Shown: positions 1-17,801, counted from the stretch's first letter. The stretch is DNA of 20,000 nt from an uncultured virus (IMG/VR IMGVR_UViG_3300027793_000064) (IMGVR_UViG_3300027793_000064), one strand, 5' to 3'. Numbers and translations are program-made. Notes: generated from the sequence alone by a model not told the origin.

Positions 1-290
1 TTGCCGATGTTTTCATAATAGATCTCCACAGCTTTCTGCGGATAATTGACGCACAATTCTTCGAACTTCTCTTCCTGTTCTACATCATCGAACTCTAGTT
101 CGGTTTCTGTGATGTTAGCACTAGGCAATCCGTTAGGATACTTGGCTGCCAGCAGTGCTTCATAGAAAGCAACATAGCTAGCGTTACCATCGGCTTTAAT
201 GTAACCGCAGCCGATCACAATATCGGTACGGCTTGCAGGAGTGGCCTGCAGCTCGGTGACCTTGGCCAGCAGTTCGGTTCCGGTGAGCAT
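1..290 (-). CDS. cyanobacterial AbrB-like N-terminal domain protein with acidic extension (3' end truncated by the window)
   Basis: Manual translation MLTGTELLAKVTELQATPASRTDIVIGCGYIKADGNASYVAFYEALLAAK resembles the cyAbrB N-terminus (LTG..LL.KV.EL...CGY...FY.ALLAAK); -10 box CATACT at 316-321. Confidence 0.75.
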   Translation of the reverse strand, partial: MLTGTELLAKVTELQATPASRTDIVIGCGYIKADGNASYVAFYEALLAAKYPNGLPSANITETELEFDDVEQEEKFEELCVNYPQKAVEIYYENIG

Positions 291-437
291 CGATCGATCC
301 GTTTGGGACTCACCTAGTATGGGTCCAGCGACCGCACTAGAACAGCCGCCTTGTGCCAGTGGTCGAACTGGTTTTTTCTGGTCAGAATCGGTTGAAATGG
401 CCCCATAACCTGCTAGACTATGGGAACAAGAGAAGAA

Positions 438-484
438 GAGAGCAAGAAGCTCGATGACGAGAAGTAAGCCACAGCCACCCTGCC
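438..484 (+). ncRNA. dispersed two-hairpin repeat, copy 1 (putative small RNA)
   Basis: GAGAGC-AAGAA-GCTC-GATGACGA-GAA-GTAAGC-CACA-GCCAC-CCTGCC; upstream TTGAAA(392)-16 bp-TAGACT(414). Confidence 0.6.
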
Positions 485-511
485 ATGAAATAGTTAAGTA
501 TAAAGAATAAG

Positions 512-540
512 AAAAAGAGTTAGAATAACTAACTCTTCTG
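512..540 (-). terminator. intrinsic terminator
   Basis: AAGAGTTAG-aataa-CTAACTCTT stem followed by a U tract on the minus strand, just after the ORF ending at 554. Confidence 0.75.
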
Positions 541-553
541 AAGTTTGTGTTAC

Positions 554-715
554 TTAGTAACGATCCATCAGCACCTTAAGGTCGCGCAGCGCAGTAACCT
601 TTCTAGAGTCGGGATCGCTTAGCCTTTGCTGGGACCACAGATGGTGAGCGATGGCATCCTGCAGCGCCAGCAGTTGCGAGTTGGTGAGGTTCAAGACGAC
701 AGGAGTGATCTGCAT
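554..715 (-). CDS. hypothetical phage protein
   Basis: ORF; start moved to MQITP, downstream of the predicted -10 box at 742-747. Confidence 0.6.
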   Translation of the reverse strand: MQITPVVLNLTNSQLLALQDAIAHHLWSQQRLSDPDSRKVTALRDLKVLMDRY

Positions 716-778
716 GGGGTGGAATCCCTTTCGACTCCCATAGTCTCTCATGCCTTATGGGGAAGATCAAGTGGGTCT

Positions 779-801
779 TGTGCCAGAAAATAAGTGGCAC
801 A
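779..801. promoter_or_regulatory. dyad operator TGTGCCA-N9-TGGCACA between divergent promoters
   Basis: Inverted repeat lying 31 bp from GAGACT (742-747, minus) and 31 bp from TAGACT (833-838, plus). Confidence 0.7.
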
Positions 802-855
802 CTCCACCCCCATGAGGCGGTAGTGGATGCAGTAGACTATGGGAACAAGAGAAGA

Positions 856-903
856 GGAGGCTAAGAAGGCCAGTGACGACAAGTAAGCCACAGCCACCCT
901 GCC
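856..903 (+). ncRNA. dispersed two-hairpin repeat, copy 2
   Basis: GGAGGCT-AAGAA-GGCC-AGTGACGA-CAA-GTAAGC-CACA-GCCAC-CCTGCC; -10 box TAGACT at 833. Confidence 0.6.
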
Positions 904-964
904 ACAAAATAATACGAAATACGAAATTAAAAAAACGAATTTTTATAATTTTTGTAAAAATCTA

Positions 965-997
965 CAGGAGCCAGTGATACCTTCTCACCAGCTCCTG
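965..997 (-). terminator. hairpin of the GGAGCCWGTGAWAC family, probable terminator
   Basis: CAGGAGC..GTGA/TCAC..GCTCCTG stem followed by U-rich sequence on the minus strand. Confidence 0.55.
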
Positions 998-1007
998 ATA
1001 CTGTATC

Positions 1008-1337
1008 TTATGGACGCCAAGTATCAGGGAACACATCTTTAATATAATTCTTCACAACATCTTGTTCTTCTTTTGTATCCAGATCTTCATATTGTGTCCA
1101 CCATGATTCACCAATGAACCACATCTCATTAGGATCAAAGCTACCAACACCATGCTGATAGTCACCATCACGCTCAATGTGCCATTCTCGCTCAAAGATA
1201 GAATCTTCTATCTCATTGGCTGCACTAATGTATGATTTTGTGTCATAAGAGTTATGATAAACAAACTTCATACACTCATCAACAAAAACCTGACCAAGTT
1301 CTTCGAGATAAGATTTGCTGGTGGTGACGGTAGGCAT
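1008..1337 (-). CDS. hypothetical acidic phage protein
   Basis: ORF; likely start MPTVTT, since the upstream extension is a low-complexity AT tract. Confidence 0.7.
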   Translation of the reverse strand: MPTVTTSKSYLEELGQVFVDECMKFVYHNSYDTKSYISAANEIEDSIFEREWHIERDGDYQHGVGSFDPNEMWFIGESWWTQYEDLDTKEEQDVVKNYIKDVFPDTWRP

Positions 1338-1488
1338 GATGAAAAAAAAACGAAAAACGAAATCGAAAAAACGAAAATTAACAAAAATTGTTAATTTCTG
1401 TGGGAGCCAGTGAAACCGGCTCACCAGCCCATCATACCACAGACTCAGCCTCAGCTGTGATCACGATCTCAAGCCAGGTGTGGCAGTT

Positions 1489-1764
1489 CTAGAACTGTGT
1501 GGTTTTCATGGTCTCTTCTGCAAGATCATTACCTACAACACCGGCAATGAACTCTTGTGTAGAATCCTCATCCTCACCTTCTGCGACCCAGATGTCTTCA
1601 ATTAGCATTGCAATATCAGTATCACTCTGACCAGGATTTTGGTCAAAGGATTGTATCATCATTTGCATTGCATAAGAGAACAGATCATCACTGCTCATGT
1701 TATCAATGACACGATAGCAATGTGCAGTCAGCAGTTCGGAAACTTGTTCAGTGGTGAGAGCCAT
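1489..1764 (-). CDS. hypothetical acidic phage protein
   Basis: ORF from MALTTEQ; -10 box TACCTT at 1790-1795, dyad at 1826-1849. Confidence 0.75.
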   Translation of the reverse strand: MALTTEQVSELLTAHCYRVIDNMSSDDLFSYAMQMMIQSFDQNPGQSDTDIAMLIEDIWVAEGEDEDSTQEFIAGVVGNDLAEETMKTTQF

Positions 1765-1902
1765 GAGAAGAAATGTCCTCGACTCCCATAAGGTACTGCC
1801 ACCACCAGCACCAGAGCAACCGCCTTGTGCCAGTGGTTCTTCTGTCCCATCAGTGCCCCACCAGCTGGTTCTCATGCCTTATAGTTGTATCAACAACAAG
1901 GG

Positions 1903-1949
1903 GAGAGCACGAAGCTCGATGACGAACAGTAAGCCACGCTAACCCTGCC
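1903..1949 (+). ncRNA. dispersed two-hairpin repeat, copy 3
   Basis: GAGAGC-ACGAA-GCTC-GATGACGA-ACA-GTAAGC-CAC-GCTAAC-CCTGCC; -10 box TATAGT at 1880. Confidence 0.6.
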
Positions 1950-1973
1950 TTGAAATAATAAGATATAAAGAAT

Positions 1974-1994
1974 AAAAAAGGGATTGCTCCCTTT
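1974..1994 (-). terminator. intrinsic terminator
   Basis: AAAGGGA-ttgc-TCCCTTT stem with a U tract on the minus strand, after the ORF ending at 2000. Confidence 0.7.
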
Positions 1995-1999
1995 ATGTT

Positions 2000-2209
2000 T
2001 TAGATAGCAATCTCTACCCAATAACAATCAGGAGACTCCTCATCTTGATAACTTGTAACAAGACCTTTTGTGATAAGTTGTCCTAAGACTCCTGCTGTAA
2101 TGTGACTGTTATCGAATGGAGAAACCTCATGGAGCCAACCACAACCAGGCTGATCCATACCCTCTTTGATAGAATCAAGAAGCATTTGCTCTTTATCAGT
2201 CAGAGTCAT
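2000..2209 (-). CDS. hypothetical protein, possibly a winged-helix-like DNA-binding protein
   Basis: ORF from MTLTDKEQMLL; the segment AGVLGQLITKGLV weakly resembles a wHTH recognition helix. Confidence 0.65.
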   Translation of the reverse strand: MTLTDKEQMLLDSIKEGMDQPGCGWLHEVSPFDNSHITAGVLGQLITKGLVTSYQDEESPDCYWVEIAI

Positions 2210-2270
2210 GAGAAGAATTGATCTCAACTCCCATAAGATACAGCCGATTCCAGGTCAGTGGTGTGGTTCT

Positions 2271-2294
2271 TGTGCCAGTGATCTTAGTGGCACA
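2271..2294. promoter_or_regulatory. perfect dyad operator TGTGCCA-N10-TGGCACA between divergent promoters
   Basis: 30 bp from TATCTT (2235-2240, minus) and 30 bp from TATGAT (2325-2330, plus). Confidence 0.75.
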
Positions 2295-2344
2295 GTAGTG
2301 GGGTTCTTATGGGGTTCTGGGTCTTATGATAGTATCAAATCAAA

Positions 2345-2392
2345 CGAGGCTAAGAAGGCCGATGACGATCAGTGAGCCACGCTCACCCTGCG
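2345..2392 (+). ncRNA. dispersed two-hairpin repeat, copy 4
   Basis: GAGGCT-AAGAA-GGCC-GATGACGA-TCA-GTGAGC-CAC-GCTCAC-CCTGCG. Confidence 0.6.
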
Positions 2393-2450
2393 AAAAAATA
2401 CGAAATACGAAATTAAATTATTAAGAAATCATAAAAATATAAAAATCTCA

Positions 2451-2479
2451 TGGGAGCCTGTGATACTGTCAGGCTCCCA
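2451..2479 (-). terminator. hairpin of the GGAGCCWGTGAWAC family, probable terminator
   Basis: TGGGAGCCTG-9 nt-CAGGCTCCCA perfect 10-bp stem after the ORF ending at 2487. Confidence 0.65.
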
Positions 2480-2486
2480 CTATACT

Positions 2487-2849
2487 TCAACCTAGGTAAA
2501 AATCATCACGATTCCCATACATGAGATGATACCATTGCTCCTCTGTATCTACCTCTACCTCACGATGTTGTTCATCTAGTTCTACATCATATCTTCCACC
2601 ACCTTCACCAGCATCCACTGCCTCATGATATGGTGCATTAAGCTCACGATATACATGATCCACTGCAATCTTGTAAGCTTTATCTACTGCATCAGCCCAG
2701 ACATAAAACCTATCAGTTTCGATAGTATTCTCCTGGATGTTGTATGCTTTCCAGGTTTGGAAACAATAGCGAAATGCTGTTTGATCCTTATACTTAAAAG
2801 TATCAGTGCCGATCAGCTCGATACCACCAAGACCCAGATACTTTTCCAT
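2487..2849 (-). CDS. hypothetical phage protein
   Basis: ORF from MEKYLG; -10 box TAGATT at 2878-2883 and dyad at 2912-2935. Confidence 0.7.
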   Translation of the reverse strand: MEKYLGLGGIELIGTDTFKYKDQTAFRYCFQTWKAYNIQENTIETDRFYVWADAVDKAYKIAVDHVYRELNAPYHEAVDAGEGGGRYDVELDEQHREVEVDTEEQWYHLMYGNRDDFYLG

Positions 2850-2919
2850 GAGAAGAAAACGGTTTTTGAACAATTCAAATCTACAGGAGATTCCGCGAGA
2901 AATCCCCTGCAGTAGCCAG

Positions 2920-3105
2920 TTAAACGATTGGCACATCCTCCACCAGTTCGGGATAGTATTCTTGACATTCAGTGATCAATTCTTCGTCCGAATACTTATC
3001 ATAACCCTCGTCCAGGTAATCATAACAGAGTTGGGTCATTGTCTTAAGGTCCATGTCATCCAACATCTGCTGAATGAGTTGGTCTTGAAGTTCAGTGCGG
3101 TTCAT
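2920..3105 (-). CDS. small acidic cyanophage-type hypothetical protein
   Basis: ORF MNRTELQDQLIQQMLDDMDLKT...YSDEELITECQEYYPEL. Confidence 0.8.
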   Translation of the reverse strand: MNRTELQDQLIQQMLDDMDLKTMTQLCYDYLDEGYDKYSDEELITECQEYYPELVEDVPIV

Positions 3106-3254
3106 AATCAGAGGAGTTGAGTGAAGTTGTCATCGACTCCCAAACAATACGATGCCCACCACTACCTGTCAATCCCTCCACCGATCAGTGATCCTTATGA
3201 GTCAAACCCCCCCACAGCCCCCATCACATGCTAGAATTAACTCAACAACCAAAC

Positions 3255-3301
3255 GAGAGCAAGAAGCTCGATGACGATAAGTGAGCCACGCTTACCCTGC
3301 C
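3255..3301 (+). ncRNA. dispersed two-hairpin repeat, copy 5
   Basis: GAGAGC-AAGAA-GCTC-GATGACGA-TAA-GTGAGC-CAC-GCTTAC-CCTGCC; extended -10 box TGcTAGAAT at 3229-3237. Confidence 0.6.
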
Positions 3302-3505
3302 ATAAAATAATCGCCTCATAAGAATCTGATATATTTGATATTCTTATGAGCTAGTGTGATTCTCATAAGTATCTGATATATTTGAATGTTTTATGGATGG
3401 GGGTGGGGGCGATGAGTATTTGTGATATTTGTGATTCTTATGGGTCGGTGTGGGTCTTATGAGTCTTATGGGGGGTGTACCAGAAAAAAATCTGGTCGCG
3501 CCCCT

Positions 3506-3534
3506 TTGACAAAATCGAGCGAGCGTGTTATAAT
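3506..3534 (+). promoter_or_regulatory. consensus sigma70 promoter
   Basis: TTGACA (3506-3511), 17-bp spacer, TATAAT (3529-3534), with TG extended -10; no ORF downstream. Confidence 0.85.
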
Positions 3535-3604
3535 GGGACGGCCTAAACGGCAAGGTCTCATAAGGATTAAATGGTATTAAATGACATAAAAAACAAAAAA
3601 ATAT

Positions 3605-3765
3605 CACAAGAACTCATAAGAACACAAGAACTCATAAGAACACAAGAACTCATAAGAACATCAAATATAAGAAGAAATCATAAGAACACAAGAACTCATA
3701 AGAACATCAAATATAAGAAGAAATCATAAGAACACAAGAACTCATAAGAACATCAAATATAAGAA
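3605..3765. repeat. tandem repeat array: 18-bp CACAAGAACTCATAAGAA x5 within a 46-bp higher-order unit
   Basis: 18-mers at 3605, 3623, 3641, 3687, 3733; 46-bp units at 3641-3686, 3687-3732 and partial 3733-3765. Confidence 0.95.
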
Positions 3766-3949
3766 CAAAATAACACAATAAGATACGAATTCATATCATA
3801 AGAAGAACTAATATAAACAAGTATCAACAGTAACAAAACAATAAAAAACAATTAAAAAAAGCTTTTTAATTGAAATTTAAACAAAAATACGATATTTTAA
3901 ACAAAAATCATAAGATTTTAACCATTTTCTAGGAGAGCCTGTGATACTG

Positions 3950-4303
3950 TTATCCTGGGTGTTTGATCATCGTATCAGAGATGGATTGATCTTTATTCTT
4001 ACTGAACCCATGCTTCTTATAGAAACGATCTAATGCCTGTTTCTTTCCTTTATCTGGTTCTGGTGTTAATGTGACTGATGTATTATTTCTCTTTGCAACA
4101 TTGGATATTCCTTTCATAACTCTTGATCCTATACCTTGTCCTTGTTGTTCATCAGGAACACGGATATTGTTTACTCTTATTGTATTAGATCTTGGAGAAT
4201 GAGAAAACGATAATTTCATACCTGGATATCTTCTTTGGTAATTCTTCTCAATCGTTGAGAGAGCCTGTGATACATCTTCTAGAAATTGTGAATAAGATTT
4301 CAT
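3950..4303 (-). CDS. GNAT-family acetyltransferase with a putative capsid-targeting N-terminus
   Basis: Acetyl-CoA motif A V.DEQQGQGIGS and FYKKHGF; N-terminus MKSYSQFLED. Confidence 0.85.
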   Translation of the reverse strand: MKSYSQFLEDVSQALSTIEKNYQRRYPGMKLSFSHSPRSNTIRVNNIRVPDEQQGQGIGSRVMKGISNVAKRNNTSVTLTPEPDKGKKQALDRFYKKHGFSKNKDQSISDTMIKHPG

Positions 4304-6465: not shown

Positions 6466-7212
6466 CTACTTTCTGCCCGATCTCCAACCTTCGCCTGGAC
6501 ATTCTATAGAACGAGTGGTATTTCCGCAACCATCATTCCACCATTTCATACTACTCATTAGTCTTTCAATTTCTTGGCCACGACCAAGAACCCAACCTTC
6601 ACCTGGGCACTCTACAGAAAGAATGCAATTTCCACATCCATCATTCCAAAATTTTTTCCCATAATTATGATTATCTTCTCCCACATATTTACCTTTTTTT
6701 AGTTCGCTCAACATTCTCTTAGTTTCTTCAGAATGTTTTTTGCCTTTTCTTTTTTTACTCCAATTTTGTTTAGTTTCTTCAGAATGTTTTTTGCCGTAGA
6801 AAGGATTATTTTTGCCACTCAAAATTTCACTTCGTTTCCCTCTGGTTTCATCTGAAAATGATTTACCATACCTATGATTGTTTTCTCCTTTCATTGCTTC
6901 ACTTCTTTCTCTTTTCCATTCTTCACTTCTTATAAGACCAGAAAACCCTTCACCTCCATTAGTCCTATTCCTTAATATCCCAGTTCCCAAATCTTTTCTG
7001 CCAAAGACCGCAATCATATATTCCTCGTGCTTAAATGCGTCTTCTTCCAGGAGATTTTGTTTGAGAAATATTATTCTGGATTTGTCTTTTGGGAGTTGTA
7101 TTTCATTTTTGCGTTTATAATATGCTCTATTTCCTTCTCCTTTTCCAATGTAATAAGGACTTCCATCTTCACGCAAATATGCGTAAGTATAAAACCTTTT
7201 TGGGTCTTTCAT
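6466..7212 (-). CDS. free-standing GIY-YIG-like homing endonuclease with NUMOD3 repeats
   Basis: FYTYAY...YYIGKG...R...E...LRN.T.GGEG nuclease module; KHSEETK NUMOD3 repeats; two C-terminal WNDGCGN...ECPGEGW repeats. Confidence 0.85.
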   Translation of the reverse strand: MKDPKRFYTYAYLREDGSPYYIGKGEGNRAYYKRKNEIQLPKDKSRIIFLKQNLLEEDAFKHEEYMIAVFGRKDLGTGILRNRTNGGEGFSGLIRSEEWKRERSEAMKGENNHRYGKSFSDETRGKRSEILSGKNNPFYGKKHSEETKQNWSKKRKGKKHSEETKRMLSELKKGKYVGEDNHNYGKKFWNDGCGNCILSVECPGEGWVLGRGQEIERLMSSMKWWNDGCGNTTRSIECPGEGWRSGRK

Positions 7213-9010: not shown

Positions 9011-9093
9011 GAGAATGATTTGTTTGGGCATTCCTACTATAAAGCCCCCAGTGGAGTGCTGGGGGCATGAGTGGACAGTTTTTAAATTGTCTA

Positions 9094-10122
9094 TTATCCT
9101 TTTGCTCTGCGTCTGAGAGCACGATAGTCTGTGGGCAATTCATCTCTTTCGTCTGCTCTGAGAGCACTACCTGGAGTAAAATCAGTGCGATCACTTCTAT
9201 TTGTTGCTCTCTCAATTCCTCTTCTATTGGCAGCATCTAATCTTGCAGCATTTTGTGCCTCTTTTTTACTCTTTTCCCTTGCTTCTCTTCCTTGTCTTTC
9301 ACGAGCAGCAGCATTTTGTGCTTTTAATACATTAGGATTGATCATATGTCTTAATCCACCTGGACCAGAAACAGACATAATTTGTGCCTCATCAAGAATT
9401 CCATCAATCCATGCCTCTGACATATTTGCCATAATGGTGATGGCATTCTCTTCGGTATCGGCATAACCTTCATCGAGAAGATGTTCGAGAACTACATCAT
9501 AAAGATCTACGGTTTCATTTACCTTTTTGGTCATGTGATCAAATACTTTTTGTGCTCTTGGATCTTTGAGTTTTTGGCCTTTGTTCCATTTTGCACCTTT
9601 TTCTTGTTTTTTGTCGTTCTCTTCAAAAATACTATCAATCCATTCTTCACTCATGTTTGCCATAATGGCCAGAGCATCTTCTTCGGTATTGGCATAACCT
9701 TCATCGAGAAGATGATCGAGAACTACATCATAAAGATCAAATTCTTCTTCCATTCCATATGATGTAGTCTTAGTTGGCTTGGTTGCTGTTGCTTTAGTTG
9801 GTTTCGTTGGTTTAGTTGCAGAAGTTGAAGATGTGGGTGTAATTATTCTAGATCCGCCATTTGGCTTTGAATCCCTGATATATCTACCCTCACTATCAAT
9901 TCTTTCATTGAGTTCATCATAAGATTCAGGAAGACTTGGAGTTACTTTTGGTCCTTTTCTACCTGGATACCTAGTTGCCTTCTTTACTGCCTTGGTGGCT
10001 TTTTGGAGTGCATCAGCATCACCATAATCGCCATGTCTTTGATGATCAACTGCTGCCTTTGCTATTGATTTGATGTCACTATCTTCATAAACAGATAGAT
10101 AAGCTTCGATTAAATCTTCCAT
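9094..10122 (-). CDS. putative late/internal head protein with two LLDEGYA...MSE.W repeats
   Basis: Duplicated domain; ATAAATA late-type box at 10144-10150. Confidence 0.75.
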   Translation of the reverse strand: MEDLIEAYLSVYEDSDIKSIAKAAVDHQRHGDYGDADALQKATKAVKKATRYPGRKGPKVTPSLPESYDELNERIDSEGRYIRDSKPNGGSRIITPTSSTSATKPTKPTKATATKPTKTTSYGMEEEFDLYDVVLDHLLDEGYANTEEDALAIMANMSEEWIDSIFEENDKKQEKGAKWNKGQKLKDPRAQKVFDHMTKKVNETVDLYDVVLEHLLDEGYADTEENAITIMANMSEAWIDGILDEAQIMSVSGPGGLRHMINPNVLKAQNAAARERQGREAREKSKKEAQNAARLDAANRRGIERATNRSDRTDFTPGSALRADERDELPTDYRALRRRAKG

Positions 10123-12979: not shown

Positions 12980-13045
12980 TGCCTTGTTGTCGATGAACTT
13001 AGTATAAGGCTTGAGGTTGGGCGGTGGAGTGGTGCTTGTGCCAGT

Positions 13046-16127: not shown

Positions 16128-16350
16128 TTGTTTTTTATAAATTAACCACGAGTCAAATATACATGGTATACTGACTCGTGGGACAAAGAGTGGACAGTTT
16201 TTAAACCGAACTCAAAATTTGATTTCTTCTAGAGTTGGTTCGTTTTCTGTCGGATCACAGAGCTGAGAGGCAACTTTATCGAGCATGTTCAGAAGATTGT
16301 CACCACTGCCAGAATCACGCAGTAGTTTGATTGCTTCTTGTGTTGTCATT

Positions 16351-16692: not shown

Positions 16693-16886
16693 GATCAAAA
16701 ATCCTCCAGTAGTTTCATTGTTTCGGGATCAAGTTCCTCTCGAATAGAGGAACCAAAGATTCCATCGTCAAGCAAATCGTCGATGAAATCAAGATCGTTG
16801 TCTTCCATAAGGAAGGTGTTCTTTTGTGTGAACTCGTTCATCATAGCATGAGAAGTGTGTGGTGTGTCAAGAGAATGGACAGTTTT

Positions 16887-17153
16887 TCAATCGTCACAGT
16901 CCGAGTTGTCTACTTGTTTCCAAATGAGATCCAAGTCCTCAAAAAACATTTCAAGTTCGGTCTCATCTTCTGGGATTTCCTCGTCGTCTCCCAGAGTAAA
17001 GTTTGCTTCGCCTAATCCAGGACCATATTCCTCTGGAAATTCATAAGTTGCAGGATAACGAATGAGAAAATCATCGAGCATTGCAACAACAATACCTGAC
17101 TTAGTTTCTGGATCGTAACTGTAATTTACGATCTCCATCACAAACTGGCTCAT
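16887..17153 (-). CDS. hypothetical acidic protein (P.EYGPGL motif)
   Basis: ORF; ATGA overlap with the upstream ORF. Confidence 0.75.
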   Translation of the reverse strand: MSQFVMEIVNYSYDPETKSGIVVAMLDDFLIRYPATYEFPEEYGPGLGEANFTLGDDEEIPEDETELEMFFEDLDLIWKQVDNSDCDD

Positions 17154-17705: not shown

Positions 17706-17801
17706 GATGGAAACTCCTTTGAACAGTCCTATGGTAGCAACTGAATGTACTGTTGTGAGTGTCAATGGACGGATTTTAAACCGTCCACTGGCAAAAAAAC
17801 T

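Follow-up and report, generated by a model that had tools for sequence, protein, structure and literature searches.

Linkers between small gene cassettes in an uncultured virus carry a repeat family of constant layout, in which a short hairpin covaries on the + strand behind a conserved, promoter-like hexamer, and related genomes form a mosaic of cassettes around these linkers. The DNA is that of a freshwater T4-like cyanophage and comes from its hyperplastic region; the T4-like context shows in the baseplate genes gp25/gp6 nearby and in a Kyanoviridae relative, Synechococcus phage B3. Our best reading, to which we give an even chance, is that the repeat constitutes a new RNA module, early, non-coding and multicopy, housed in linkers of the PeSL type. 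The conserved -10 hexamer, a leader without U, a hairpin that covaries on one strand and the absence of an Rfam match together support a multicopy, separately promoted, non-coding unit on the + strand, new to Rfam. We infer transcription of the + strand, the end of the RNA and its function from sequence.

Five copies in the window

The window is the whole stretch of DNA that was analysed (20,000 nucleotides; IMG/VR IMGVR_UViG_3300027793_000064). The pattern TGACGANNNGTRAGCCAC matches its + strand five times, at 455, 874, 1920, 2363 and 3272, against a chance expectation of 0.06 matches, and five matches were reached in 0/200 shuffles. The same copies were returned by a repeat-family search, and covariance model R1, run over the 20 kb, reported exactly five copies at 76-88 bits; the five + strand copies described in an earlier note on this DNA are therefore real by all three methods.

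Copy 1 (411..493, 83.8 bits, also recovered by the pattern and the repeat search) opens with a TG at 411-412 and a -10 hexamer, TAGACT, at 414-419, and is preceded by a -35-like TTGAAA at 392-397; the promoter scan scored 392-419 at 9/12, with TG. A U-free leader (approximately 426-439), hairpin 1 (440-452) and a conserved core (453-484) follow, the core reading GATGACGA nnn GTAAGCCAC nnnn ACCCTGCC before a ATGAAATAG tail. The remaining copies, also on the + strand, each have a -10 hexamer and leader before the hairpin: copy 2 (833..911, 78.4 bits) has TAGACT at 833-838, hairpin 1 at 859-871 and core at 872-903; copy 3 (1880..1957, 87.8 bits) has TATAGT at 1880-1885, hairpin 1 at 1905-1917 and core at 1918-1949; copy 4 (2325..2400, 76.4 bits) has TATGAT at 2325-2330, hairpin 1 at 2348-2360 and core at 2361-2391; and copy 5 (3229..3309, 82.7 bits) has TG at 3229-3230, TAGAAT at 3232-3237, hairpin 1 at 3257-3269 and core at 3270-3301. 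These -10 boxes lie where the earlier note had placed them (414, 833, 1880, 2325 and 3232), although the gap from hexamer to hairpin is 17-20 nt, the 15-18 nt originally given running to slightly earlier start points.

Hairpin 1 is GAGC AAGAA GCTC in copies 1 and 5, GAGC ACGAA GCTC in copy 3, and GGCT AAGAA GGCC in copies 2 (with a U-G pair) and 4. A second hairpin folds within the core of only two copies, perfectly in copy 4 alone (2372-2386) and with one G-U pair in copy 5 (3281-3295). The genes around the copies lie on the - strand, opposite to the element as had been claimed, and two of them match DUF7326 / phrog_1352.

The wider family and its secondary structure

Searches that fixed only the core, leaving hairpin 1 and the promoter free, assembled a set of 61 different copies, drawn from the window and from viral contigs of uncultured freshwater phages, and of 183 when metagenome contigs were added; a search of 185,579 bacterial species genomes returned none. 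In 183/183 copies hairpin 1 (4-bp stem, NNGAA loop) is fully paired despite a varied stem (GAGC/GCTC, GGCT/GGCC, GGCC/GGCC, GGCC/GGCT, GGGC/GCCC, GGGT/GCCC, GGCT/GGCT, GGGT/GCCT and GAGC/GCTT). Five positions that the search pattern did not fix never vary among the 183: the A preceding the stem, the G that opens it, the two A's at the end of the loop, and the G with which the 3' arm begins. Among the 61 members, 100% of alignment cells pair in this stem; at two pairs both partners are exchanged (30 and 27 cells), and two pairs toggle to G-U. The covariation score is 0.289, compared with 0.163 in shuffles, and the observed value was reached in 0/500 shuffles. As the earlier note had proposed from an A(A/C)GAA loop and two stem types, hairpin 1 switches by compensatory changes, in the window and in both sets of members. 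Because the U-G and G-U pairs of hairpin 1 would be C-A mismatches on the - strand, selection acts on the + strand.

The 'two-hairpin element' of the earlier note must be abandoned, since there is only one conserved hairpin. RNAalifold, applied to the 61-member alignment, predicts hairpin 1 alone and omits hairpin 2, for which 72.7% of cells pair in the 61 copies, the central pair is open in 57/61, and each of the two pairs that close the loop is missing from 17-18; the complete set of six pairs occurs in 12/183 copies. Within the window, hairpin 2 is a local fold of copies 4 and 5, and the element is best described as a single small hairpin that covaries, with 32 nt of conserved, largely unpaired sequence behind it. 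Mutual information revealed no pairing beyond hairpin 1, and the folding of the five window RNAs is not clearly superior to that of their shuffles (z from 0.00 to -2.06). When the core was paired with the 42 translation start regions of the window, the values fell within the range given by shuffled cores, excepting one region, located upstream of the predicted start of a transcript, and a search for a host site produced none that was convincing. The element belongs to no known RNA family in Rfam 15, as the earlier note had suspected: no copy matches at E up to 1 across the whole 20 kb, and the + strand elements in 400-1010 and 1870-2490 have no match at E up to 10.

Synechococcus phage B3, a relative belonging to the Kyanoviridae, whose UvrD helicase shares 67% amino-acid identity with that of the window virus, carries seven diverged copies at 114.1-120.7 kb, all antisense to annotated genes. 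These keep the order of parts seen in the family and have stems of their own (AGAGC/GCTCT, GCGC/GCGT, AGGT/ACCT, AGAGCC/GGCTTT and GCGG/CCGC). Four related contigs contain arrays of 5, 6, 10 and 12 copies, each in one orientation, and the array copies in related genomes are antisense to small gene cassettes. Three of the four have one further copy, in the opposite orientation and back to back with the array; in the two contigs examined, this copy lies approximately 75 nt upstream of a gene of 230-233 amino acids and is oriented with the downstream gene run, and the one such gene tested matches DUF6011. In contig G003, and probably in G001, the DUF6011 gene has a promoter-like TAnnnT-ATGGGAGTC site of its own downstream of the module. 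Parts of the array region also occur in RNA-library contigs from three studies, which are strandless and possibly reflect DNA carry-over.

Putative promoters, terminators and the linkers

A TAnnnT hexamer lies 16-21 nt upstream of hairpin 1 in 182/183 copies and is accompanied by TG in 119 of the 182. Its variants (TAGACT, TAGAAT, TAGGAT, TATGAT, TATTCT, TATAGT and TATTAT) all keep T1, A2 and T6, the positions expected to stay constant in a -10 box, and each copy probably has its own promoter. The leader is purine-rich (A 55%, G 28%) and effectively U-free, having 0.7% T (16/2400) compared with 32% T in the window.

A stem-loop is present downstream of the element in 61/61 copies, but a + strand T-run of at least 5 in 8 nt follows it in only 4/61, which leaves termination of the + strand RNA uncertain. 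At least 5 A in the 8 nt before the stem-loop, equivalent to a U-tract on the - strand, occur in 33/61. In the window, the stem-loop after copy 1 (513..539) is the putative intrinsic terminator of the - strand gene 554-715, with a T-run on the - strand only; that after copy 2 (965..997) would terminate the - strand gene 1008-1337, and that after copy 4 (2451..2479, - strand) lies just past the end of gene 2487-2849. The stem-loop after copy 3 (1977..1994), which serves the - strand gene 2000-2209, is the only one with a + strand terminator score, and may be bidirectional since both strands scan as terminator-like. Overall, the scan placed - strand terminator-like sites after four small genes. 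An RNA ending at the hairpin shared with the convergent gene would measure approximately 100-125 nt, longer than the 65-100 nt that had been claimed.

The - strand genes have candidate promoters that stand back to back with the element. A putative -10 GAGACT at 742..747 (gene 554-715) lies approximately 91 bp from the copy 2 promoter, and the conserved ATGGGAGTCGA after it would be the start of the 5' UTR. Putative -10 boxes TACCTT at 1790..1795 (gene 1489-1764) and TATCTT at 2235..2240 (gene 2000-2209) are each 90 bp from the -10 boxes of copies 3 and 4 respectively, and a promoter-like TTGACA-17-TATTGT, scoring 10/12, at 3144..3172 (gene 2920-3105) is 88 bp from that of copy 5. Promoter-like sites occur on both strands of each linker, and the window scan assigns a promoter-like site and a terminator to each of the small genes. 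When window positions 1-4300 were compared with related loci by blastn, cassettes were present, absent or reordered, with breakpoints in the linkers; in relative L114, for example, window segments 1-518, 717-932 and 2352-2866 adjoin without the cassettes that separate them here. In one orthologous comparison, cores were 98% and 87% identical, compared with 84-92% for genes, and recombination between linkers may account for much of the resemblance among copies.

PeSLs (promoter-early stem-loops) of T4-type phages are conserved motifs of about 100 bp, composed of promoter and stem-loop, that mediate cassette shuffling (PMC2839356, PMC4122927). The linkers here, whose PeSL-like setting the earlier note had missed, share with them a sigma-70-like promoter in the repeat, an adjacent terminator-like stem-loop and breakpoints at the repeat. 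The agreement fails for orientation: PeSL promoters and stem-loops point with the genes, and the word 'antisense' is absent from PMC2839356, whereas the -10 box, hairpin and boxes of our element read opposite to the array genes.

Interpretation and comparison with known systems

We favour an RNA module in which each copy would be a small opposite-strand transcription unit inside linkers of about 250 bp between small early gene cassettes. A host RNA polymerase of the sigma-70 type would start at an extended -10 promoter, TGnTAnnnT, and the transcript would comprise a leader of 10-15 nt almost without U, the 4-bp NNGAA hairpin, about 32 nt of mostly unpaired sequence with the conserved boxes GAUGACGA, GURAGCCAC and AYCCUGCC, and an A-rich tract, before reaching the terminator stem-loop of the convergent gene. 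The conserved 5' module would be the working part, most likely as RNA, serving as a protein-binding platform or a pairing seed, with near-identical sibling copies supplying dosage early in infection; as with PeSLs, the linkers are also DNA-level sites at which cassettes are gained, lost and swapped. Of the multicopy sRNA in the earlier note, the promoted, non-coding unit probably survives and its purely antisense character does not: because 3/4 contigs have an opposite copy, upstream of a DUF6011 gene in the one tested, the module is better seen as an RNA element close to a promoter than as an sRNA that is antisense throughout. A more specific and tentative proposal is that in T4-like freshwater cyanophages an array of 5-12 sibling RNAs, made from strong host-type promoters at the very start of infection, captures, by way of the shared tiny hairpin and unpaired boxes, a host RNA-binding factor or defence sensor, perhaps a ribonuclease or translation factor, and that the opposite-facing copy places the DUF6011-led gene run under the same factor. 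If so, no conserved sRNA family of this multicopy kind would have preceded it in cyanophages, and the linkers of hyperplastic regions would be carrying a function of their own in a new way.

It is rather unlikely that the repeat is solely a DNA-level linker of the PeSL type, serving cassette shuffling and gene-strand regulation and kept similar by recombination, with a promoter look-alike and a hairpin that have no function in RNA. The T4-like hyperplastic context with gp25/gp6 nearby, the promoter-like site and terminator of each small gene, the mosaic with linker breakpoints exemplified by L114, and the description of PeSLs as shuffling motifs (PMC2839356, PMC4122927) all favour it; but recombination alone leaves unexplained the compensated pairing in 183/183 copies with G-U on one strand, the hexamer that keeps T1, A2 and T6, the T-free leader, and the retained order of parts in phage B3 with different sequence. 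Furthermore, PeSL parts, as described in PMC2839356, point with the genes.

Somewhat less probable again is a cis-acting, promoter-proximal RNA that works on nascent transcripts, whether as an antitermination loading site of the nut/put kind, a 5' stabiliser or an operator, in which case the array copies would launch antisense transcription through neighbouring cassettes and shut them off. The module always lies about 14 nt from the predicted start, the opposite copy found in 3/4 contigs shares the direction of its downstream gene run in the two examined, and read-through into the cassettes is possible since most + strand stem-loops lack a U-tract. Lambdoid boxB/boxA and rrn leader sites have a short stem, a purine-rich five-base loop and adjacent conserved single-stranded boxes, which hairpin 1 and its boxes resemble; the lambdoid nut (boxA and boxB) and HK022 put sites share with our element a promoter-proximal short hairpin, a purine-rich loop and a conserved single-stranded neighbour. 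However, boxB has a 5-bp stem and a GNRA-like pentaloop, and acts with boxA and a cognate N protein, so the 4-bp stem and NNGAA loop depart from its consensus in length and sequence, and no boxA-like sequence was seen by eye in the element. The many copies, most of them aimed against genes, are also unlike nut/put; a promoter before each cassette would be redundant if transcripts were processive, and the DUF6011 gene of G003, and probably that of G001, comes with a promoter-like site of its own downstream of the module.

We regard as very unlikely that the copies make origin or primer transcripts, whose purine-rich RNA would form a persistent R-loop in the downstream A/T-rich tract and prime DNA synthesis. 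At T4 oriF/oriG and the T7 primary origin a promoter-made RNA primes DNA synthesis, and T4-type R-loop origins pair a promoter with a downstream A/T-rich unwinding element, where a persistent RNA-DNA hybrid is retained. The U-free, purine-rich leader and the A-rich tract seen in 33/61 copies recall this arrangement, the array borders a non-coding region of 640 bp with iteron-like repeats, and the array and single opposite copy point away from each other; yet an origin needs neither 5-12 copies in 5-10 kb nor a conserved hairpin or three sequence boxes, and the A-rich tract is already accounted for, being complementary to the U-tract of the convergent terminator. A tiny leader peptide starting at the (A/G/T)TG of RRTGACGA is scarcely credible: NTG is present in 173/183 copies (ATG 124, GTG 28, TTG 21) behind purine-rich sequence, but is replaced by ACG, GCG, CCG or GAG in the other 10, the stop comes after 7 to >30 codons in the window copies alone, conserved positions span all three codon positions without third-position variation, the variable triplet straddles two codons, and the B3 copies have no common reading frame. 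The family thus lacks a conserved ORF, in keeping with the earlier view that the element holds no credible ORF.

The RNA module that we prefer has a parallel in multicopy sibling sRNAs such as the Yfr2 family of cyanobacteria, which also occur as several near-identical copies per genome at varying loci, each with its own promoter, and combine a first stem-loop with a conserved motif left unpaired close to the 5' end (PMC6778093); it differs in having no Rfam match and in copies that are phage-borne, clustered and antisense to neighbouring genes. Opposite-strand transcription, predicted here, has been described for the early cis-antisense RNAs of PAK_P3/PAK_P4 (PMC5563952) and for antisense protection from RNase E during cyanophage infection (PMC3113571), where it is proposed to tune phage expression or RNA stability. 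Those RNAs overlap coding regions and are not known to share a conserved module, whereas here a conserved 5' module is repeated and the overlap with genes would comprise the terminator only, unless there is read-through. In its setting the element resembles PeSLs (Arbiol et al. 2010, PMC2839356; Comeau et al. 2014, PMC4122927), which are likewise conserved, composite intergenic repeats of T4-like hyperplastic regions, with sigma-70-type promoters and stem-loop terminators flanking small orphan genes, and which coincide with cassette gain, loss and replacement among relatives. Where the PeSL papers describe components in gene direction and no opposite-strand transcript, the core here would have a separate opposite-strand promoter, a covarying hairpin and conserved boxes, and backs onto the gene promoter at approximately 88-100 bp.

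The repeated element and its hairpins

Five plus-strand copies of one element, with hairpin 1 at 440-452, 859-871, 1905-1917, 2348-2360 and 3257-3269 (copies 1-5), were recovered by each search of the window. An 18-nt pattern gave five matches against 0.06 expected, a total reached in 0/200 shuffles; the copies reappeared as repeat family D3 in a repeat search of the window, and a covariance model reported exactly these five across 20 kb, at 76-88 bits. The -10 hexamers lay where the earlier note had placed them (414, 833, 1880, 2325 and 3232), the gap from hexamer to the start of hairpin 1 being 17-20 nt. Among viral contigs 112 stretches matched the pattern, most single matches being due to chance, and a filter on the full core left 61 distinct copies, five from the window and 56 from related loci. 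A further 113 stretches from metagenome contigs matched a 21-base core pattern, and the combined set of 185 distinct 93-nt copies, less two unrelated GC-rich chance matches, came to 183. These searches constrained the core only, leaving hairpin 1, leader and promoter region free to vary.

The covariation proposed for hairpin 1 from five copies was upheld in this family. RNAalifold on the 61 copies predicted it as the sole helix, with four pairs, none broken and two changed on both sides. Pairing held in 100% of cells; one pair was divided between A-U and G-C (30:31) and another between G-C and C-G (34:27), while the outer pair was G-U in six copies and the inner pair U-G in 24. Such wobbles are C-A mismatches on the minus strand, and thus the constraint lies on the plus strand. 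The covariation score was 0.289 against 0.163 when shuffled, with 0/500 shuffles attaining 0.289, and shifting the 3' partner along reduced pairing to 22-37%. In the larger set hairpin 1 was paired in 183/183 copies, in nine stem types and with the loops ACGAA, AAGAA, CCGAA or CCTAA. The A preceding the stem, the first G of the stem, the last two A's of the loop and the first G of the 3' arm were invariant in all 183, and none of these five positions falls within the search pattern.

The two-hairpin description of the element was wrong. Only 72.7% of cells in hairpin 2 were paired among the 61 copies, its central pair being unpaired in 57 and its two loop-closing pairs lost in 17-18; all six pairs formed in 12/183 copies, and 64/183 had four or fewer. 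Mutual information revealed no pairing besides hairpin 1. The five window RNAs folded no better than their shuffles (z 0.00 to -2.06), with hairpin 2 appearing in the folds of copies 4 and 5 only. As hairpin 2 is not conserved, the element comes down to a single small hairpin and, downstream of it, a conserved stretch of ~32 nt that is mostly unpaired.

Genes, linkers and cassettes of the window

All credible genes of the window lie on the minus strand, and their products include a UvrD-type helicase, a NUMOD3 endonuclease, an RNA ligase, a GP88-family protein, a dCMP deaminase-like protein and a GNAT acetyltransferase. Synechococcus phages B3 and B23, which are 245-kb myoviruses classed in Kyanoviridae, encode helicases with 67.2% identity to this one, and DNA near-identical to the window is present in many freshwater, lake-water and wetland metagenome runs. 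Seven small minus-strand genes occupy positions 1-3300 (3-290, 554-715, 1008-1337, 1489-1764, 2000-2209, 2487-2849 and 2920-3105). Their strand assignment is sound because two match DUF7326 and phrog_1352, and relatives of one occur in marine and freshwater cyanomyoviruses. Elsewhere, internal direct repeats were seen in a 342-aa ORF at 9094-10122 (9388-9507 and 9619-9738, 120 nt, 85% identity) and in the NUMOD3 endonuclease gene at 6466-7212 (6484-6546 and 6592-6654; also 6688-6789).

Every linker between the small genes follows a common plan, running on the gene strand from gene through a stem-loop with U-tract, the complement of the element and a GC-richer spacer of ~90 bp to a -10-like hexamer, ATGGGAGTCGA and the next gene. 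With gene-strand hexamers as we assigned them, the back-to-back hexamers stand 91, 90, 90, 88 and 100 bp apart. The spacer frequently contains CTTGTGCCAG or a TGTGCCA-N9-10-TGGCACA inverted repeat. CTTGTGCCAG sites (346-380, 776-801, 1822-1836, 2267-2294 and 13019-13045), two of them in that inverted-repeat form, lie midway between back-to-back promoters and recur in B3 linkers; the motif may be an operator. The promoter-proximal motif TAnnnT-ATGGGAGTCGA is common to the small minus-strand genes (742-760, 1781-1795, 2224-2240, 3130-3149 and 305-319, minus strand), and B3 genes have a related GGGAGTC or GGGACT at the equivalent place. A start region, TTCTTCTCATG, is common to three genes and complementary to GAGAAGAA, which only copies 1 and 2 have in their leaders. 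Short words of the form CTTATGRG / CTCATAAG (750-763, 2303-2333, 3193-3204 and 3440-3480) recur at scattered points in the linkers and in the large non-coding region, at times overlapping the plus-strand -10 box (CTTATGAT, CTTATAGT). A further motif, GAGTGGACAGTTTTTAAA, occurs four times (9060-9091, 16179-16210, 16873-16895 and 17754-17785; repeat families D12 and D17) and resembles GTGGACAGTT of B3 linkers, and may serve as a promoter of a different temporal class.

On the plus strand, an A-run precedes the stem-loop downstream of the element in 33/61 copies and a T-run follows it in only 4/61, which argues that this stem-loop is mainly the terminator of the convergent gene. Were the predicted plus-strand RNA to stop there, its length would be ~100-125 nt; measured from the start of the extracted stretch, the stem-loop ends at a median of 140 nt, which is ~130 nt from the -10 hexamer.

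Comparison of window 1-4300 with related loci by blastn revealed common cassettes in differing combinations. In the related locus L114, matches to window 1-518, 717-932 and 2352-2866 adjoin, without the three intervening window cassettes, and the cassettes at 554-715 and 2920-3105 had no counterpart in the related loci. The most widely shared segments are the linkers. A reading of the element as a DNA linker and nothing more has this mosaic on its side and the plus-strand constraint on hairpin 1 against it, and we hold it unlikely.

Between the array and the GNAT gene lies a 640-bp non-coding region (3310-3949). It holds three 47-bp units, each with an inverted repeat CTCATAAGAAT...ATTCTTATGAG (3315-3442), a G-rich run, and on the plus strand a perfect consensus sigma-70 promoter, TTGACA-17-TATAAT with TG (3506-3534), after which come 13 overlapping 18/28-bp repeat copies built on ACAAGAACTCATAAGAAC (3586-3805). 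The region could function as an origin or encode a repeat-rich RNA; a comparable iteron-like region lies beside tRNA-Leu in B3.

Promoter-like box, predicted transcription and possible function

A TAnnnT hexamer stands 16-21 nt upstream of hairpin 1 in 182/183 copies, preceded by TG in 119 of the 182. It takes seven forms in which T1, A2 and T6 are kept, and this conservation pattern, judged from sequence, is that of a functional -10 box. From the predicted start to hairpin 1, the leader is 55% A, 28% G, 16% C and 0.6-0.7% T (window T, 32%); a purine-rich initial transcribed region helps polymerase to clear strong phage promoters, T5 N25 among them. Contigs from RNA libraries (four runs, three studies; unstranded, without starts, ends or levels) cover parts of 218-3828, one loose end running into sequence of the opposite-facing subtype, and are a weak hint of expression, DNA carry-over being possible.

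We regard the repeat, its strand, the promoter-like box and hairpin 1 as solid, and consider it likely that the plus strand is transcribed into a functional RNA module. It is an even call whether the sibling RNAs act in trans, through the unpaired boxes and the small hairpin, with the linkers also serving a shuffling like that of PeSL (promoter-early stem-loop) cassettes. We judge a cis-acting, promoter-proximal element, for instance an antitermination or operator site, decidedly unlikely, and origin transcripts forming R-loops highly unlikely. A micro-ORF is scarcely credible, as the earlier note had also concluded: although a start-like NTG is present in 173/183 copies, the stop position is variable, conserved positions span all codon positions and the B3 copies have no common frame. 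A minus-strand reading frame across the element was rejected too, being interrupted by stops in copies 2 and 5.

Novelty relative to Rfam was sustained, since scans at permissive thresholds gave 0 matches on the elements, and no description of the element was found in the literature searched. The core was present in none of the isolated phages, where blastn of the whole unit aligned the A-rich tail only. The full core pattern had 0 matches in bacterial species genomes; a shorter core pattern had at least 120 scattered matches in bacterial genomes, roughly the chance number by our estimate. One exact GTAAGCCAC-N4-ACCCTGCC match, with ACGA directly before and CATGAA directly after, lies in a Cyanobium MAG contig (L249, 1499-1521), either upstream of a high-light-inducible-like gene of the other strand or within that gene's 5' end. 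This stretch was not found in 120 other genomes of the family, and as a host copy or mimic it was therefore set aside as probably a chance match. Allowing one mismatch, 201 genomes of the family (that of G005) gave 40 core matches against 17 for the reversed control; several of these near-matches repeat as the same sequences across several genomes (GTATGCCACCTGCACCCTGC, GNAAGCCACCNNCACCCTGC) and probably derive from a single conserved GC-rich gene. The core did not pair clearly better than shuffled cores with 42 translation start regions in the window, and its best site, at gene 1489-1764, is located upstream of the start predicted for the transcript of that gene. Neither an RNA target nor a mimicked host site was found among the window start regions and bacterial genomes.

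Arrays in related phages and comparison with T4-type cassettes

The covariance model found similar arrays on four related phage contigs, with five copies on one strand and one on the other in G001, six and one in G002, ten and one in G003, and 12 and none in G004. Each array spans 5-10 kb, its copies antisense to small genes, and the lone copy of opposite orientation is placed back to back with the array. This opposite copy is a distinct subtype, TGGTAGGAT then GGCAGAGG, accounting for 15/183 copies; in G001 and G003 it lies ~75 nt upstream of a gene of 230-233 aa in the same direction, which in G001 matches DUF6011 and is followed by baseplate gp25 and gp6 genes. The DUF6011 gene of G003 has its own promoter-like site between module and start codon, and that of G001 probably likewise. 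The window ends before the expected site of such a copy. Downstream of the opposite-facing copy is a conserved stretch, GTGTGACGGNTTGTTACGGTTTGGCGATYYGAGCC (L114 4480-4556, and the tails of related loci L063, L076, L084 and L030), which may be part of the DUF6011 gene leader.

In B3 the covariance model gave weak matches (E 0.006-0.28) that required inspection by eye. These matches are intergenic and run opposite to the genes, and their parts follow the order of the window element: TGnTAGACT or TAGAAT, a U-poor leader rich in CAA/GAA, a short GC-rich hairpin, (A/G)UGAU, ~20 nt, CCUGC, an A/U-rich tract and the stem-loop of the convergent gene. A profile from six B3 copies found seven in B3 at 114.1-120.7 kb, all antisense, and their stems, although different in sequence, are all pairable (AGAGC/GCTCT, GCGC/GCGT, AGGT/ACCT, AGAGCC/GGCTTT and GCGG/CCGC). 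The layout is therefore conserved across a split of 67% helicase identity, while the primary sequence mostly is not. No opposite-facing copy was found in B3 by nhmmer, and tblastn of the G001 DUF6011 protein gave 0 matches there. The seventh copy (B3 locus L113, 24074-24190) lies beneath B3 gp252, annotated on the other strand as a hypothetical protein of 38 aa, and that CDS call may be spurious.

In T4-like phages, a hyperplastic region is usually taken to consist of orphan genes with promoter-terminator linkers between them. Here the linker has a further conserved unit of its own on the opposite strand, with a strand-specific covarying hairpin, and this unit is common to a whole lineage of abundant freshwater cyanophages, with a diverged form in the cultured B3 and B23. 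If transcribed, it would constitute a new phage RNA family, made in many copies early in infection. B3 and B23 came from a subarctic lake, and their announcement does not mention the element; since they were isolated and grow on cultured strains of the Synechococcus-Cyanobium complex, the prediction is directly testable (PMC7171214). The cassette mosaic agrees with the behaviour of PeSL cassettes in T4-type phages in two published accounts (PMC2839356; PMC4122927). Both accounts, however, orient promoter and stem-loop along the genes and describe no unit on the opposite strand (PMC2839356; PMC4122927). Even without an RNA function the linkers extend the PeSL idea to cyanophages and add a new back-to-back promoter layout.
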